This document shows positions 3,125-11,886 of a stretch of DNA of 64,000 nt, one piece after another. Position numbers and translations under genes: made by a program. Source of the DNA: Dehalococcoidia bacterium (lineage in GTDB: Bacteria; Chloroflexota; Dehalococcoidia; UBA6926). The first letter of the stretch is position 1; every line of letters starts with the position of its first letter. The notes below the pieces were generated by a model. That model worked only from the letters and a program-made list of their open reading frames with translations, was not told the DNA's origin and did not search any database. Location: NCBI GenBank assembly GCA_965214725.1, contig OZ243973.1, positions 801,938 through 865,937 of the forward strand. The letters run 5' to 3'.

Positions 3125-4054
3125 ATGACACATCAGCTTAGGGAAGACACCGATGGCGGGGTGGCAATCGGCCCGCCTATCATGACCATGGTGGCGAACA
3201 GACAGGAACGAGACACTCGCATGGACATGCCCGGTGGGATGCCGCTGCCTGACCATCTCTCTGACCGCCTACCGGTGGCGGATCGCCCCATCTCCCTGAG
3301 CACGAAGAATATGTCGCTCTACTACGGCGAGTTCAGGGCGCTCAAGGACATCTCCGTTGAGATTCCGGAACGAACGGTCACGGCGATTATCGGCGCATCC
3401 GGCTGCGGCAAGAGTTCCTTCCTGCGCAGCTTCAACCGGATGAATGACCTGATCCCCGGCGCGCGCCTGGAGGGAACGGTGGAGCTGGGCGGCGTCCCCA
3501 TCTATGATCGGCGCGTTGATGTGACTGAGCTGCGCCGCGTCGTCGGCATGGTGTTCCAACGCCCCAACCCGCTCCCGATGTCCATCTATGAAAACATCGC
3601 CTACGGCCCCCGGAGGCGTGGCGTGGGGAATCGCGCAGAGCTGGACGGCATTGTCGAGAGATGCCTCACGCAGGCGGGGCTGTGGGATGAGGTGAAGGAC
3701 AAGCTCAAGCAGGAGGGCAATGAACTATCCGGCGGGCAGCAACAGCGGCTCTGCATCGCGCGGACGCTGGCCGTGGAGCCGGACGTCATCCTGATGGATG
3801 AGCCATGCTCCGCGCTCGACCCCGCCTCAACGCTGCACATCGAGGAACTCATGCAAGAGCTGGGGCGTGAGTACACGATCCTCGTCGTCACTCACAACAT
3901 GCAGCAGGCCGCACGCGTGTCTGAGATGACCGCATTTATGCATATGATTGAGGATCGCGCGGGCGCCCTGATAGAGTTTGGCCCAACAACAGGGATCTTC
4001 ACCAACCCGAAAGAAAAGACGACTGAGGACTACATCACGGGCCGTTTCAGTTAA
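3125..4054 (+). CDS. pstB: Second PstB-type phosphate ABC transporter ATPase paralog (alternative start at 3221)
   Basis: Walker [26 protein letters not shown] and [14 protein letters not shown]; a tandem paralog of the preceding pstB. Confidence 0.8.
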
Positions 4055-4100
4055 GAGGGCAGAGCGGCGGGCACGCTGATAGGCGAAGAGAGGAACTACA

Positions 4101-4781
4101 ATGGCAATGGAACGGCACCCCACCAGGCAGGACTTTGACCGGCTCCTGCAGGAGCTGCAGGATGATGTTCTTGCAATGGGCTCCATGGTGGACAAGTCCA
4201 TCGAAAGGTCGACAGAGGCGCTCGTCACCCGGGATGCCGCCCTCGCGCGGCAGGTAATCGCCGAGGATGAACAGATCGACGCGACGCGATTTGAGATTGA
4301 AGAGAAGGCCATCCGCCTCATCGCCACACAGCAGCCCATGGCGAGCGATCTGCGCGTATTAGTCACCGTCCTCTATGTCATTGTCGATCTTGAGCGGATG
4401 GCAGACCATGCGGAGGGGAACGGGCGCATCGCAGAGATGATCGGCGCGGACGGCACGATTCGGCCGCTTGAAACCCTACCCCGCATGGCGGATAAGTGCC
4501 GTGACATGCTTCGCCGGTCACTCTCCGCTCTGGTCAGTCATGACGCGGAGGCGGCGCGTCAGATCTGTGAGGAGGATGATGAGGTGGACGAGATGCAGAA
4601 CTCGTCCTACCACATGCTGCTGCAGGTCATGCTTGAGAACCCGTCCCGCGTCCAGGAGGCGACGTACCTGCTGTGGGCGACGCACAACCTGGAACGCATC
4701 GCAGACCGGACAACCAACATCGCAGAACGAGTCATCTACCTAGTAACCGGCCACATGGAAGAACTAGCCAGCAAGCTGTGA
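4101..4781 (+). CDS. phoU: Phosphate signalling complex protein PhoU
   Basis: Two PhoU repeats with the typical DLERxxDHA motif (VDLERMADHAEG); sits downstream of pstB. Confidence 0.85.
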   Translation: MAMERHPTRQDFDRLLQELQDDVLAMGSMVDKSIERSTEALVTRDAALARQVIAEDEQIDATRFEIEEKAIRLIATQQPMASDLRVLVTVLYVIVDLERMADHAEGNGRIAEMIGADGTIRPLETLPRMADKCRDMLRRSLSALVSHDAEAARQICEEDDEVDEMQNSSYHMLLQVMLENPSRVQEATYLLWATHNLERIADRTTNIAERVIYLVTGHMEELASKL

Positions 4782-4834
4782 GCGTGGGTGGGGCGGGGGC
4801 GCGAGTTGGGGGGCGGCTGTATACTAGGCGTGTC

Positions 4835-5167
4835 ATGAGTGCCCGGGAACTGAACCCTCAACAAGCGACGGAAACGTGGCCTGTTGCCATAGACAGCTTG
4901 CAACCGGATAGTTTGTTGCGCATTGTGGAGCCCATCGCGGTGACGTGGACCGTGGAAGATGACACAACAATCGCCAACGCCCCGGAAATTAACGAGTATG
5001 GCTACGGGGATTCGGTTACTGAAGCAATCGAGGATCTCCAGGCAACCATCGCCGAACTCTACCTTCACTTGGACGAGAACCACGATAACTTAGGCCCGGA
5101 CCTGCAAAACGTCTACAAAACTCTCACGAGAAAGCTCAAGAAGATCAATGCCAATCACGGCGCGTGA
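4835..5167 (+). CDS. HicB-like antitoxin (UPF0150/HicB fold)
   Basis: ...NEYGYGDSVTEAIEDLQATIAELYLHL... matches the HicB/UPF0150 core pattern (GYxAxxPELPGCxSxGDTxEEAxxNxxEAIELYLE). Overlaps the next small ORF by 21 nt. The six-frame ORF 4673..5167 N-extension overlapping phoU is rejected; the ATG at 4835 is used. Confidence 0.5.
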   Translation: MSARELNPQQATETWPVAIDSLQPDSLLRIVEPIAVTWTVEDDTTIANAPEINEYGYGDSVTEAIEDLQATIAELYLHLDENHDNLGPDLQNVYKTLTRKLKKINANHGA

Positions 5168-5311
5168 GTTTGACAGAATCGTCCGCAAGTTCGGTTTCGA
5201 ATTCCGTGAGAGCGGCGAGGGTACGGCCGAGGTGCACTCATTCCCCTCATACCCGCGCGTTCTCCTCATACCCGCGAAAGCGGGTATCCATCGGGGCTCC
5301 CAACCTTAGAG
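5147..5311 (+). pseudogene. HicA/YcfA-like toxin remnant; C-terminal half replaced by REP1 element sequence
   Basis: The N-terminus MPITAREFDRIVRKFGFEF resembles the YcfA/HicA family (…RKFGFELVRQKGSH…). The conserved GSH motif is missing, and the last ~25 codons are the translation of a REP1 repeat (…IPAKAGIHRG…). Confidence 0.4.
5264..5294. repeat. REP1-family palindromic element (core ATWCCCGCG-AAAG-CGGGWAT flanked by GATGG/CCATC and GAGGGGA/TCCCCTCA)
   Basis: cctcatacccgcgaaagcgggtatccatcgg; related copies at 8573, 19704, 20426, 20563, 26329, 36611, 37187 and 60679. Confidence 0.8.
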
Positions 5312-5343
5312 ACCACGGATGAGGCAGTGCGGCGAGCAGTGGA

Positions 5344-7158
5344 CTAAATCTTGTCCGCGTAGGGCCAGATTTCGATTATCTTCTCGGCCATCCACTTGCT
5401 GCGGCGCTCGATGGCGTCCTCGTCCCAGACATTTCCGGCCATCTCCAAGAGCTCGGTGTTGAGGCGCAACGTGGTGTGCTTCTTGAGTGTGTCAATCTTG
5501 CTTTCCCAAGCACCATTGGACAAGGAGACATTCAGTTTCTGCGTGACCAACGTAATGTTGCCAATCTCCTTGATTGCATTCGCCCTCTTGCCCAACCTCT
5601 CTTCATTCTGCATTTGCTCTGGCGGCAGCTGCCAGTTTCGTTGCCACGATTGGGGCATGATGTGTTCACGGGACAGATTGCCTGCAACAAGTTTCTCGGT
5701 CATTCCCGTCCGGATATGCTGCTCGATGGCCTCCAGTACCATCACTTGCCTTCCCACAGTGCCCTTCATAGGCTGTCCCACCAGGCTATCCCGGATATGA
5801 GAATCCAGCGGCCAAGTTCGATTTTCCGAAGTTTGACCTCGCAAGAACTCTACGATCGCATCTGGCACTGACCGATGCGTTTCGTGAATCAGCTTGCCAG
5901 TTAGTTCAAAGAAGAGTCTGTTCAATCCTTGGGATTGTTGGCCGCAGAGCATCCTTCTAACCAAGTAACTCTCAAGTGCCTTCGTTGATCGCACTATGTC
6001 ATCCTCAGCAACGTCTTCTGTGTAGAGCCGCAATAGGAGTGGAATGACAACGCCCAATTCCATCGTCTTGAGCCTCTGCAAAAACTGCTCTATTCCCGGC
6101 TGTCGCGCCTCCTCCATATCCAAATAAAATTGTCCAGCTCTGCGGAGTTCGGCAGCGATATTGTCTATATCATTTGGCCGCGACTCAACCACGGTTCGGA
6201 AACCCTTGTAAACTCGCTCCGCCGTCACTTCGACACCATCACCTTGTTTCATTGATTCTATTTCTAGGGCAGTCCAATAGTTCAGAAATCGATCCAAATG
6301 AATCCGGCTCAATCTACCTTCCTGGGTACCCCTTCGCCACCAATCTTGATCCTCTTCAAAGTACCCCCAAAGGTTACGAGCCTTTTGCTCGTCATCAACG
6401 ACATCGGCCCGGAACATAATTTCATTCTTGATGAGGTCAGATTCCAGTAGCCGTTCGGCTCGTGCATTCAGCACCGAGAATACAAAATGGGGTTTCTCGC
6501 TGGCATCCAGGTCAACTGTTGCCAATTTCATGTACTCGGACAGGGTCTTCTTCAAAGCCTCAGTCCGTTCCTCCCTCTCGCGCGGAGCCTCATTCATCCA
6601 AGACGTAGCCTTGCCCAAGAAATAGCTGAGGGCTTCATCGATGCCCCTTGCTGTAGGTGTCGCTGTTCCTTGCCGGATAACATTCTGAAATGAAGTCCTA
6701 TCACTCACATTTGATTGGCGCACTTTTGTCTGATTCTCGGTATCGTCAGTCCAAGATCTCTCGTCATTCAGCGTCAGCCTTTGGAGATCGTTCGCTCTAT
6801 CATTGTCACCAAGATTGCGGAAACACTGCTGCACGGCTCGAATCAAGACTTGCAGAGTCGTGAGCCTTTGCTGTCCGTCAACGACGATCTGTCGATCCAC
6901 CTTAGGGCCGGAACCCGAACTATACTGAGACTGCAAAATGATTGCCCCCATGAAGTGGGCGGGGACGTTTGAATCGGAGGATCTCATGAGTTCGAGAGCC
7001 TTGTCTTTCACATCTTCCCAAAGCGGGTACCATTGGTCATCCTCAGTCCACGCATACGGTCGCTGAAACACCGGAATCCGATACGAGACGTTATAGCCAA
7101 AGAGCTCGTCAAGCGTCCGCACATTTGCGTCCATAATCGTTATTCCCCTTTCTCTCAA
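5344..7158 (-). CDS. GmrSD-like DUF262 (ParB/Srx-like NTPase, DGQQRLTTL) fused to DUF1524 (HNH-like) — putative type IV modification-dependent restriction endonuclease
   Basis: N-terminal ...IPVFQRPYAWTEDDQW... and DGQQRLTTL motif (DUF262). C-terminal ...HIMPQSWQRNW...NLTLVTQKLNVSLSNGAWESKIDTLKK (DUF1524 His-Me finger-like). Visibly lower GC than its neighbours. Confidence 0.7.
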   Translation of the reverse strand: MRERGITIMDANVRTLDELFGYNVSYRIPVFQRPYAWTEDDQWYPLWEDVKDKALELMRSSDSNVPAHFMGAIILQSQYSSGSGPKVDRQIVVDGQQRLTTLQVLIRAVQQCFRNLGDNDRANDLQRLTLNDERSWTDDTENQTKVRQSNVSDRTSFQNVIRQGTATPTARGIDEALSYFLGKATSWMNEAPREREERTEALKKTLSEYMKLATVDLDASEKPHFVFSVLNARAERLLESDLIKNEIMFRADVVDDEQKARNLWGYFEEDQDWWRRGTQEGRLSRIHLDRFLNYWTALEIESMKQGDGVEVTAERVYKGFRTVVESRPNDIDNIAAELRRAGQFYLDMEEARQPGIEQFLQRLKTMELGVVIPLLLRLYTEDVAEDDIVRSTKALESYLVRRMLCGQQSQGLNRLFFELTGKLIHETHRSVPDAIVEFLRGQTSENRTWPLDSHIRDSLVGQPMKGTVGRQVMVLEAIEQHIRTGMTEKLVAGNLSREHIMPQSWQRNWQLPPEQMQNEERLGKRANAIKEIGNITLVTQKLNVSLSNGAWESKIDTLKKHTTLRLNTELLEMAGNVWDEDAIERRSKWMAEKIIEIWPYADKI

Positions 7159-9869: not shown

Positions 9870-9890
9870 GATGTGTTCGCCCTCCTCCCC

Positions 9891-9925
9891 TCTCGTTGAC
9901 TCTCACCGCTCTCGTTGACTCTCAC
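9891..9925. promoter_or_regulatory. Two direct repeats TCTCGTTGACTCTCAC (19-bp period) in the divergent intergenic region
   Basis: Repeat copies at 9891-9906 and 9910-9925; each contains a TTGACT (-35-like) hexamer. The site lies between the CoA-transferase start (9869, minus) and the islet gene at 10075 (plus). Confidence 0.3.
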
Positions 9926-10074
9926 GGCAACATCAATCGATCCGCGAGTGCGCTAGGTAAGCGGCCTCCACCGCCGCCCATCACTCAGCCCCGCCACGCG
10001 AATAGATGACATATTGTTGCACCGAGAACAGGTGGGGTAAAGTGGTGATCCAATTAGCCAAAGGGGAGGAACGT

Positions 10075-10416
10075 GTGACAACTCGAGACAGGGAATCGAT
10101 ACAGGATAAGGTTCGATTCTGGGAAGAGCAAGACAAGATCAATCAGGAGCTGATTCCGCGGGTCATTCGCCAGAATGAGCTGCTATCTGCTCACGTAGCA
10201 GATCACGACAATCTACCTGCGTTAGCCGCAAATGCCGCGAGCGAGGCGTTGCGGACCGCAAGAGAAGGAGACAACCACCGCTACGAACAAGCCCTAGCTG
10301 CTGCCAAGCAGGACCTTATTCGAGAGTCGGTCGCTCTTCGACGGATACTCATCGGCATATCGTCGGTTGCGGTGGCGGCATGCATTATCGCGATACTTGT
10401 TGCCCTGTTCGTCTGA
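10075..10416 (+). CDS. Small hypothetical protein: N-terminal coiled coil, C-terminal transmembrane helix
   Basis: GTG start 7 nt downstream of the GGGGAGGA Shine-Dalgarno. C-terminal ILIGISSVAVAACIIAILVALFV is a single TM segment. Lower-GC islet. Confidence 0.4.
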   Translation: MTTRDRESIQDKVRFWEEQDKINQELIPRVIRQNELLSAHVADHDNLPALAANAASEALRTAREGDNHRYEQALAAAKQDLIRESVALRRILIGISSVAVAACIIAILVALFV

Positions 10417-10435
10417 GGCTAGTGAGTGGAGAACA

Positions 10436-11578
10436 ATGATGGAATCGACCAGCCTTTTTCCAGCGCTCCGTGAACTGCCAGCTGGCAGTCCGCTCAGTGG
10501 TATGTCATACAACGATACGATGCGCGACATCCTCGAGATGGATCGAGCTATGCTCGGTGCAGAGTTTGCGACCGCCATCTCCTTTGGACTTTGGCCACTT
10601 CTTGTTGGCACGCCGCTTACAGACGGGACCAATGTCCCTGACATTTTGTTCAACGCCTACTCCCAGAGATGGCCTGAGATGTCCCAAGAAATGTCTTTGT
10701 ATGACAAATGGCAAGAACTCTTGGAGACTGGCGAGGGAATCGAACACAACGGATGGTTCTTTAGTGGTCTGAAGGGTCAACTGGCTGAATTCGAAACCGT
10801 AGGAGTCTTCGAGTCTCACGGTTTCACTGAGGTACAGTTGGTTCTTACCGCCAACAATCCAGGCTGGGATGTCAGCGCTATCAACCCGGATGGAGAAGCA
10901 GTGCTGATACAGGTGAAGACCGGCACGTCCCTTACCGGATCCGAAATAGAAGACCTCATGCAGGAGGACCCGGAGTTTCTCTTTGCCCTGGGAGGAGAAC
11001 TCCACGATAAGGCCGTGGCGTATGGCATAGATACAGATGGCCGAGTCTTCGAGCTAGGACAAGACATCGAACTAGTTGAGGGCATTGACGACGGTCTAGA
11101 CATACTCAGCGCCAACATGGGAATCGACATTCCTGATGGTGTCGTCGATGTCGTTCCGTACGCTACCGTAATAGTAGGCGGCGCGAGGCTGATCTATAGC
11201 TTCATTAGGACTGAGCGAGATTTCAGCGAAGCGGATCGCTCTACTCGGAATCAGATTCAGGTCGTGCAGACTCTTACTCTAATGTCCAGAGTTGGAATCA
11301 GCACTGTCTTGGCTACTGCAGGAGGTACAGCGGGTAGCATAGCCGGAAGTGTCATACCGGGAGTAGGCAATATAGTCGCCGGTGTCACGGGAACGATTGC
11401 AGGGGCAGGAGCCGGCATGGCGCTAAATCACAAATTGCGTCCACGGATGTTGGACATTGCTCTAAGCATCACAGACTTGACCCGTGACGACTTGTTCTAC
11501 TACAAGAACAAGAAGAAGATTGATGATTTGGGCACCTCATTCCAGTCCAGAGCAACCGATCTGGCCCCCGTCGCTTAG
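10436..11578 (+). CDS. Hypothetical protein with a central Mrr-cat-like (PD-(D/E)xK restriction endonuclease fold) domain and a C-terminal glycine-zipper membrane segment
   Basis: GQLAEFETVGVFESHGFTEVQLVLTANNPGWDVSAINPDGEAVLIQVKTG matches the Mrr_cat pattern (GxxFExxV…GxxV…D.GiD…vliQcK). The C-terminal TAGGTAGSIAGSVIPGVGNIVAGVTGTIAGAGAGMAL is a glycine-zipper-type hydrophobic segment. ATG at 10436 follows the GAGTGGAG RBS. Confidence 0.5.
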   Translation: MMESTSLFPALRELPAGSPLSGMSYNDTMRDILEMDRAMLGAEFATAISFGLWPLLVGTPLTDGTNVPDILFNAYSQRWPEMSQEMSLYDKWQELLETGEGIEHNGWFFSGLKGQLAEFETVGVFESHGFTEVQLVLTANNPGWDVSAINPDGEAVLIQVKTGTSLTGSEIEDLMQEDPEFLFALGGELHDKAVAYGIDTDGRVFELGQDIELVEGIDDGLDILSANMGIDIPDGVVDVVPYATVIVGGARLIYSFIRTERDFSEADRSTRNQIQVVQTLTLMSRVGISTVLATAGGTAGSIAGSVIPGVGNIVAGVTGTIAGAGAGMALNHKLRPRMLDIALSITDLTRDDLFYYKNKKKIDDLGTSFQSRATDLAPVA

Positions 11579-11673
11579 TAGCCGCTGTTCCGCATCGCCC
11601 TACCCGCCCTCGCACCTTGTGGGGCGATGCGGATGCGTTGCCCGACCCAGTCGCTTAGTAGCCGCTGTTCCGC
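11570..11673. repeat. 24-bp direct repeat (gtcgcttagtagccgctgttccgc) at 11570-11593 and 11650-11673 flanking a 9-bp-stem hairpin; copy 1 includes the stop codon of the upstream gene
   Basis: Exact 24-bp duplication with an 80-bp period. The intervening gcatcgccc…gggcgatgc forms a stem. Confidence 0.7.
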
Positions 11674-11687
11674 GCCAAGACACCGCT

Positions 11688-11820
11688 GTCATTCTGAACG
11701 GAGCGCGATAGCGCGGAGTCGAAGAATCTCGCAAGCAGGTGGGCGCGTCGAGCGTACTGCGCCATGCACGTCACGCGTAGGGCGCGCCGCGGGATTCTTC
11801 GCTCCGCTCAGAATGACAGG
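11688..11820. repeat. Inverted pair of REP2-family elements (long form at 11688-11728, short form at 11791-11820) forming a ~130-bp MITE-like palindromic unit
   Basis: gtcattctgaacggagcgcgatagcgcggagtcgaagaatc … gggattcttcgctccgctcagaatgacagg. Confidence 0.7.
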
Positions 11821-11886
11821 GGGGCATCAGAGTGACAGTGGGGGCATCAGAATGCAGTGGGGTACCAGAGCCACAGGGGGATAGAG

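Follow-up and report, generated by a model that had tools for sequence, protein, structure and literature searches.

Shield, Zorya and Kiwa make up a small group of defence systems that act at the membrane. ShdA, the core protein of Shield in Pseudomonas and a membrane-bound RmuC nuclease of the PD-(D/E)xK superfamily, is reported to give protection against phage by itself, to make transformation less efficient and to degrade DNA in vitro (PMC10270631). It is described as a single polypeptide in which one N-terminal transmembrane (TM) helix is combined with a coiled coil and with the RmuC domain (PMC11090510). Here we describe a cassette of two genes, one encoding a small and the other a large protein, found in a stretch of 64,000 nucleotides (nt) from the genome of a Dehalococcoidia bacterium (contig OZ243973.1), the whole of which is called the window in the following. 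The best-supported placement of this cassette is among the membrane-associated nuclease conflict systems, and none of the libraries searched gives its family a name or a characterised member.

ShdA has in common with the cassette a membrane association (predicted here), a nuclease domain of the PD-(D/E)xK superfamily and a long helical or coiled-coil element. In the cassette, instead, a second protein provides the helical, TM-anchored element and the nuclease is Mrr_cat-like, with no sequence relationship between the two systems; moreover, the predicted anchor of the cassette nuclease is a hydrophobic glycine-zipper module placed C-terminally to it, whereas ShdA has an N-terminal TM helix. No match to RmuC was found in the large protein of the window (Pfam, E ≤ 10), nor was RmuC among the 25 most frequent of the 29 Pfam families matched in 57 relatives (E ≤ 1). 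Since it has no RmuC domain, shows another topology and consists of two polypeptides, the cassette does not belong to Shield, which may be considered, by analogy, its nearest functional precedent.

The cassette was also compared with the families that its single parts call to mind. With respect to the Mrr_cat (PF04471) nucleases of type IV and type ISP restriction enzymes, the large protein is devoid of the DNA-recognition/winged-helix N-terminal domain of Mrr and, unlike Mrr-type nucleases, carries a fused membrane module and has a small protein as its obligatory partner. The motifs NMGIDIPDG and DDLFYYKNKxRID of the cassette are foreign to the Glycine-zipper 2TM, Gly-zipper_Omp, DUF1269 and DUF6861 families. 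The identity to the PD-(D/E)xK toxins of the CdiA-CT type (4g6v, 5j4a, 4g6u) is 7–13%, and the cassette has neither a CdiA delivery region nor a CdiI-type gene downstream.

A Conserved Two-Gene Cassette

In the window, the two genes are co-directional, with a gap of 19 nt between them:

10075..10416, + strand: small partner gene, 113 amino acids (aa), GTG start, ribosome-binding site GGGGAGG 5 nt upstream
10436..11578, + strand: large gene, 380 aa, ATG start, GGAG upstream

A mechanical list of the open reading frames (ORFs) contained longer versions of both, of 136 aa for the small and 403 aa for the large protein, one longer small ORF beginning at 10006, and the recorded product of the small gene, P0121, is of 124 aa (10042–10416), 11 residues beyond the 113-aa version. 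In 66 homologous small proteins the N-terminus (MT-T-D--SI-DKV...) matches position 10075 as the start, and most of the homologous small genes have a GGAGG-like site 6–9 nt upstream of their start. On the basis of these N-termini and of the GGGGAGG site we favoured 10075 over both the ORF from 10006 and the 124-aa P0121.

The cassette has a GC content of 0.529, compared to 0.613 for the remainder of the window, a value so low that it occurs in only 2.1% of the segments of the same size; at third codon positions the GC content (GC3) is 0.57, against 0.75–0.82 in the neighbouring coenzyme A (CoA)-transferase, redoxin and sortase genes. The proposal of a low-GC islet of two genes, made in an earlier note on this DNA drawn from the sequence alone, was therefore verified in both the reading frames and the composition. 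The locus gave no Rfam matches, and matches to promoters and terminators were not above chance.

The two genes form a strictly conserved, tightly spaced and unnamed cassette across several phyla. The survey was carried out on one genome per species of GTDB, namely 185,579 species genomes, and yielded 71 loci with a relative of the large protein. In about 62–66 of the 71 the small gene immediately precedes the large one (66 by tblastn), and the gap was no longer than 27 nt in 61 of the 66 paired loci; the loci without the small gene were C-terminal remnants of the large one or a false hit. When the neighbouring ORFs were clustered all against all, no third conserved gene was revealed beside the cassette.

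The hosts are mostly metagenome-assembled genomes (MAGs) of Dehalococcoidia/SAR202 type; others belong to Latescibacterota (6 loci), Acidimicrobiales, Bryobacterales and Gemmatimonadota, and one is a Melioribacteraceae MAG. The isolate names SB0662_bin, jk18x and Langseth resemble those of sponge metagenome studies. The distribution is patchy (about 65 of the species genomes surveyed), and in a neighbour-joining tree, which carries no support values, the copies of Latescibacterota and Acidimicrobiales nest among those of Dehalococcoidia. As for an empty site, the genes that flank the cassette in the window were found together in none of the 78 fetched loci searched, and at no other locus do they adjoin the cassette. 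The GC content of the cassette is below that of its flanks in 52 of 59 loci, with a mean difference of 4.6 points. The varied sites and the low GC, together with decay and duplication, point to a dispensable accessory module that moves horizontally.

Single copies of the cassette show how it decays or is duplicated. In-frame stops are present at loci L016 and L054, while at L052 (6900–8357) the large gene is split by an insertion of 1.45 kb, probably an insertion sequence (IS), with an ORF of 465 aa on the opposite strand. L063, L064, L066 and L069 are short C-terminal remnants of the large gene only. A second cassette in tandem was observed at L020, and two genomes hold two copies each.

A Predicted Nuclease Domain in the Large Protein

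More than 412 homologues of the large protein were found in a collection of 5.8 billion sequences, with no Pfam family and no name. Among the matches listed, 120 homologues showed 45–63% identity, mostly over the full length, and the family counts 563 representatives when clustered at 50%. In Pfam, the large protein matched Mrr_cat over residues 123–167 with 13.9 bits, compared to a gathering score of 21 bits (E 0.058), in addition to Gly-rich matches, and neither cassette protein reached a Pfam or NCBIfam cut-off. In PADLOC-DB v2.0.0 the sole match was that of the Gly-rich segment of the large protein to LeoB (E 0.023), the small protein having none, and no meaningful hit came from sequence searches of the PDB, whether the query was the large protein itself or its full-length or domain profile. 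The earlier note had not recognised the pair as any named system, and this was confirmed, as no library searched names either protein. Matches in PHROGs to tape-measure or tail proteins involved Gly-rich low complexity only and were dismissed as compositional.

The central part of the large protein was analysed on an alignment of 57 homologues, from which the conservation of the following residues was read:

10748..11080, + strand: Mrr_cat-like PD-(D/E)xK nuclease core (predicted), residues ~105–215
10787..10789, + strand: E118, codon GAA, glutamate of helix alpha-1 (LKGxLAEF), invariant in 57/57
10868..10870, + strand: D145, codon GAT, aspartate of 'WD', invariant in 57/57
10910..10918, + strand: Q159-V160-K161, codons CAG GTG AAG, (Q/S)xK motif, K161 invariant and Q159 replaced by S in some members

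We take the arrangement E118...D145...(Q/S)xK to be the helix-Glu...Asp...(Q/S)xK pattern of Mrr-type PD-(D/E)xK nucleases. When the 57 relatives were scanned singly with Pfam (E ≤ 1), Mrr_cat was found in 23 (best E 8e-5), NOV_C in 17 and PDDEXK_5 in one, three names that presumably all designate restriction-endonuclease-like families. The alpha-beta-beta-beta-alpha-beta core fold that defines the PD-(D/E)xK superfamily is probably present in the large protein. The match list obtained for it contains, with modest scores, influenza PA endonuclease, AF1548, XisH, EC869 CdiA-CT, YaeQ and HindIII, together with R2 endonuclease, LlaBIII, Bax1 and AspBHI and, lower in the list, MspJI, NgoMIV, Hjc, HamA, NucS, Card1 and Cap4. 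Foldseek of the large protein against the PDB gave nothing below E 0.02, and the best-ranked structures were VRR_NUC, AvaII, EndoMS and Card1.

Judging from the sequence, the large protein probably has a PD-(D/E)xK fold with an intact E...D...(Q/S)xK site, and would act as a metal-dependent nuclease. The architecture claimed in the earlier note, an Mrr_cat-like domain fused to a glycine-zipper segment and accompanied by a small membrane protein in an islet of foreign composition, is supported.

The Membrane Module and the C-Terminal Tail of the Large Protein

Two further segments follow the nuclease domain:

11120..11428, + strand: hydrophobic membrane module, residues ~229–331, defined by hydropathy and conservation
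11429..11575, + strand: C-terminal tail with the near-invariant L-T-x-D-D-L-F-Y-Y-K-N-K-x-R-I-D, from the alignments A1 and A5

The module, which is the best conserved part of the large-protein family, is composed of the lead-in NMGIDIPDG, a hydrophobic segment (236–257), a charged loop KTExEFKAADRTTKNK and, finally, a Gly/Ala/Ser-rich stretch of 55 residues, in the middle of which there is a near-invariant turn P308-G-x-G-N312. It gave no match above the gathering threshold to the glycine-zipper 2TM families (PF05433 / PF13488), for which only sub-threshold matches were found. Below threshold, Gly-zipper_Omp was observed in 18 and DUF6861 in 32 of the 57 large-protein relatives, and matches to DUF1269, C19orf12 and 'Glycine zipper 2TM' recur across the members, including relatives that have no nuclease domain. 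Such relatives also keep the LTxDDLFYYKNKxRID-type tail. The Gly/Ala-rich module may insert into the membrane, probably in the form of helical hairpins, which would leave both of its ends in the cytoplasm.

The Small Protein

None of the 358 homologues of the small protein has a Pfam family or an informative name. Two segments could be delimited at its ends:

10096..10224, + strand: near-invariant head, residues ~8–50, from an alignment of 67 small proteins
10348..10413, + strand: C-terminal TM helix, residues ~92–113, maximum of the Kyte–Doolittle (KD) window 2.9

The head has the motif I-x-(D/E)-(K/R)-V-(R/K)-F-W-E-E-Q-D-(K/R)-I-N-Q-E-L-I-P-R-V-I-R-Q-x-E-L-L...H-x-N-L-P, and the N-terminal motif KVRFWEEQDKINQELIPRVIRQ is extremely conserved. 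The spacer that separates it from the C-terminus is rich in A, E, Q, L and R (56% in total, with P and G at 4.5%), a composition that favours helix, and is of variable length, the whole proteins ranging from 106 to 389 aa. The hydrophobic C-terminus is kept in nearly all the aligned homologues and, since its helix is so strongly hydrophobic, we consider the small protein to be tail-anchored.

The earlier note had described this protein as a coiled coil followed by a C-terminal TM helix. The helix was confirmed by the KD value, while the coiled coil was not confirmed: in a heptad test the Fourier power at a period of 3.4–3.6 was not higher than that of the shuffled sequences (median z 0.4), in a crude assay that stutters can defeat. 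As the heptad periodicity was not significant, the spacer is termed here a helical stalk.

Modular Variants and Distant Relatives

The profile of the C-terminal module (A5) retrieved relatives of ~260 aa without a nuclease domain, some of them in cultured Firmicutes, namely Peribacillus frigoritolerans, Planococcus maritimus and Planococcus sp. CP5-4, where they are annotated as 'hypothetical protein' (WP_258249590.1 refers to the Peribacillus frigoritolerans pair and WP_216970908.1 to a Planococcus pair). The Firmicute relatives too are preceded, 12 nt upstream, by a small gene, whose product joins a KFWEEQEKIN head through a helical spacer to a C-terminal TM helix. Since the small partner as well as the membrane module is retained in these relatives, the pair can be regarded as the constant core and the nuclease as a swappable N-terminal module; if the second pair of locus L061, described below, is also considered, the constant core is restricted to the small protein, an N-terminal peptide and the FYYKN-type tail. 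The nuclease-less proteins argue for a function of the membrane pair of its own.

At L061, in a member of the Acidimicrobiales, this second pair (3625–5508) lies directly upstream of a canonical cassette. It consists of a tail-anchored protein of the FWEEQ type, 268 aa long, and, 6 nt after its gene, of a protein of 356 aa, which still has the LL-EL-EIP N-terminus, together with an HYYRN motif, and shows no nuclease, glycine zipper or Pfam match.

Tandem PD-(D/E)xK variants of 476–549 aa were also observed (P0017, P0241 and P0242; loci L037, L045, L046 and L062), in some of which one domain is stripped of its catalytic residues, as in the first copy of P0241, without D and K. Finally, the metagenomic P0358 (361 aa) is an apparent read-through or fusion from a small-protein homologue into the N-terminus and the nuclease domain of a large protein, and could be either an artefact of gene calling or a real fusion.

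Genomic Context

Genes of the GmrSD type are found near several copies of the cassette. In the window, a GmrSD lies 2.9 kb from the cassette, with two CoA-transferase III genes of native GC between them, and GmrSD homologues were also found within 6 kb of the cassette at L004 and L014. The nuclease-less pair of Peribacillus frigoritolerans (L075, 7569–11021) is followed by a GmrSD (PADLOC HEC-05). In Planococcus sp. (L077, 5024–12582), a tight co-directional run is formed by PDDEXK_4 (PADLOC candidate PDC-S26), DUF6998 and the small and large genes, with a long prokaryotic Argonaute (pAgo) 1.6 kb downstream of the pair and ISL3 and IstB upstream. The immediate neighbours of 66 loci, 132 in all, comprise two HicB, two OLD/AriA-like ATPases and three PsyrT-like proteins. 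These contexts suggest, without establishing it, an association of the cassette with defence genes.

The GmrSD of the window is a type IV restriction gene on the − strand (5344–7158, 604 aa; GmrSD_N 2e-28, GmrSD_C 9e-19), whose GC3 is 0.59; it is a second low-GC insertion. Farther away, the segment 34919–35581 weakly resembles the Peribacillus GmrSD in its N-terminal part (tblastn, 24% identity, E 2.5e-8) and may be another DUF262-type gene. Locus L073 is rich in transposases, with four IS families, and the next gene downstream of its cassette (5595–5978) encodes 127 aa with a near-threshold match to REase-ARP (E 1.4e-5); one further cassette locus is purely housekeeping in its context.

Possible Function of the Cassette

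The reading that we prefer, to which we give slightly less than an even chance, is that of an accessory and horizontally mobile conflict module, devoted to the defence against phages or foreign DNA and possibly abortive. It was suggested by the varied insertion sites, by the spread across phyla within one habitat, by duplication, decay and modularity, and by the GmrSD and pAgo neighbours.

Several observations weigh against it. The 132 immediate neighbours are mainly metabolic (amidohydrolases, CoA-transferase III, short-chain dehydrogenases/reductases, luciferase-like proteins and aminotransferases), those that resemble defence genes being only about five and those encoding transposases or resolvases about seven (five DDE transposases and two resolvases). 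Three of the five Firmicute relatives are found in housekeeping contexts, which are Bacillales-like. The defence-system hidden Markov models (HMMs) of PADLOC gave no significant match for the cassette proteins, and no cassette copies were detected in IMG/VR, among the INPHARED phages or among the PLSDB plasmids, so that carriage by the phages and plasmids of these collections is unsupported. Moreover, the nuclease, being dispensable in the distant relatives, may not be the effector. As for the membrane module, the mean hydropathy of its Gly-rich part is 1.1–1.5, below the classical TM threshold of 1.6, and the AlphaFold2 model is of low confidence over the module, with a predicted local distance difference test (pLDDT) score of 32–49. 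The glycine zipper reported in the earlier note holds as a sequence feature, and the membrane-inserting character that was attributed to it is conjectural. Of the horizontally acquired islet encoding a phage-defence or abortive-infection (Abi) pair, as it was proposed there, the foreign composition and the varied sites agree with the acquisition, and the defence role is plausible, with the GmrSD and pAgo neighbours for it and the mostly metabolic neighbours and the PADLOC search against it.

Should the cassette act in conflict, both proteins would sit at the membrane on its cytoplasmic side, the small one being tail-anchored and the large one held by one or two helical hairpins, with its nuclease domain and its C-terminal tail both in the cytoplasm. 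The head of the small protein might bind the large one at the N-terminal LLPxLRELP peptide, at the FYYKN tail or at both, and the small protein would serve as a scaffold, a regulator or a sensor stalk. The tethered nuclease could then cut incoming nucleic acid near the envelope, as ShdA may do; alternatively, or in addition, the binding of the substrate could free the Gly-zipper hairpins to form oligomers that permeabilise the membrane. The two candidate mechanisms are direct restriction of incoming DNA by the nuclease and sensing of DNA leading to a Gly-zipper pore.

More tentatively, as a possibility about which we keep considerable doubt, the cassette could be the founding example of a hitherto undescribed, modular, two-gene family of membrane-anchored immune systems. 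Its constant core would consist of a tail-anchored 'FWEEQ' stalk and of a hairpin protein that has both the Gly zipper and an FYYKN tail, and different modules could be swapped in at the N-terminus, be it one Mrr-like nuclease, two in tandem or unknown domains. Sponge symbionts of unrelated phyla would exchange members of the family, which would have nuclease-less relatives in the defence islands of Firmicutes and would act at the membrane on the entering DNA or by a permeabilisation triggered by DNA.

The persistence and the horizontal spread of the cassette would also be accounted for if it were a selfish toxin–antitoxin (TA) or addiction module without an immune role, in which the large protein is the toxin and the small one, co-translated upstream, its neutraliser. 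The tight pairing of adjacent small genes with the smaller first, the variable locations, the low GC, the multiple copies, the frequent decay of the large gene and the HicB and transposase neighbours at some loci are all in line with it. We consider this explanation unlikely: the small protein, unlike typical antitoxins, is anchored to the membrane and has a long and variable spacer, the Pfam scan of the window proteins showed no DNA-binding domain for autoregulation, and no plasmid copies were found in PLSDB; moreover, TA and Abi functions may coexist. An immunity role for the small protein was also considered in the frame of an inter-bacterial toxin/immunity pair, with a large protein similar to a bacteriocin that joins a glycine zipper to a nuclease. 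Bacteriocin-like toxins can indeed have glycine zippers, as mentioned in PMC11090510. However, neither a signal peptide nor a domain for secretion or delivery was observed, nor any secretion-system neighbour; moreover, the putative immunity gene is located upstream and encodes a tail-anchored product with a cytoplasmic head. Such a pair appears highly improbable.

Instead, the mostly metabolic or housekeeping neighbours and the absence of a significant defence HMM match would fit a membrane function outside conflict, for instance in the envelope stress response or in the uptake, processing or tethering of DNA, useful in the sponge habitat; the sub-threshold likeness that the Gly-rich module bears to membrane proteins of the DUF1269, Gly-zipper and C19orf12 types goes in the same direction. 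A function of this kind is distinctly unlikely in our opinion. The location of the cassette is not syntenic, its composition is foreign, some copies are pseudogenised or disrupted by IS elements, the distribution is confined to about 65 species genomes of the whole survey, and duplicated copies and modular N-terminal domains occur, all features which stand against it.

If the preferred reading of the cassette as an immune system is correct, it would represent a new architecture, in which a nuclease is held at the membrane by a glycine-zipper hairpin and accompanied by a tail-anchored stalk of variable length, and a habitat-specific defence common to unrelated sponge symbionts. To our knowledge, the community of these symbionts is not culturable and its interactions with phages are poorly known. 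The nuclease-less relatives in cultivable Peribacillus and Planococcus, beside GmrSD and pAgo, offer an experimentally tractable entry point.

Repeats Flanking the Cassette

Three groups of repeats surround the cassette in the window, none of them assigned to a strand:

9887..9924: 19-nt sequence CC(C/G)CTCTCGTTGACTCTCA, directly repeated twice in tandem between divergent genes, outside the conserved cassette
11566–11593 and 11646–11673: 28-nt direct duplication, the first copy overlapping the stop codon of the large gene
11683..11822: inverted pair of a REP-like element (TGTCATTCTGAGCGCAGCG...), with 23-nt arms, 91% complementary

According to the earlier note, a direct duplication and an inverted pair bounded the islet on the right, and direct repeats sat in its upstream region. 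All of them are present, and the role as boundaries had to be abandoned, because the duplication is found on the right side only and the REP-like element is dispersed. The 19-nt repeat, unique to the window, was ruled out as a conserved operator by its absence at 37 other loci checked upstream, and the 28-nt duplication as a target-site duplication or attachment (att) site, since both copies lie to the right of the cassette and are absent from the other loci. Between these two copies there is a unit of 80 nt with a hairpin that has arms of 15 nt (11589–11633).

The inverted REP-like pair folds strongly (−49.5 kcal/mol, z = −6.9). A miniature inverted-repeat transposable element (MITE) specific to the cassette was ruled out, as the element is dispersed over the window, where TGTCATTCTGAGCGCAGCG(AAGAATCC) occurs in nine copies, often as inverted pairs. 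The copies are located at 11688, 11800, 19432, 25204, 25383, 25743, 36684, 59682 and 60797, and belong to two subtypes, one of which carries a CGCGATAGCGCGGAGCCG insert.

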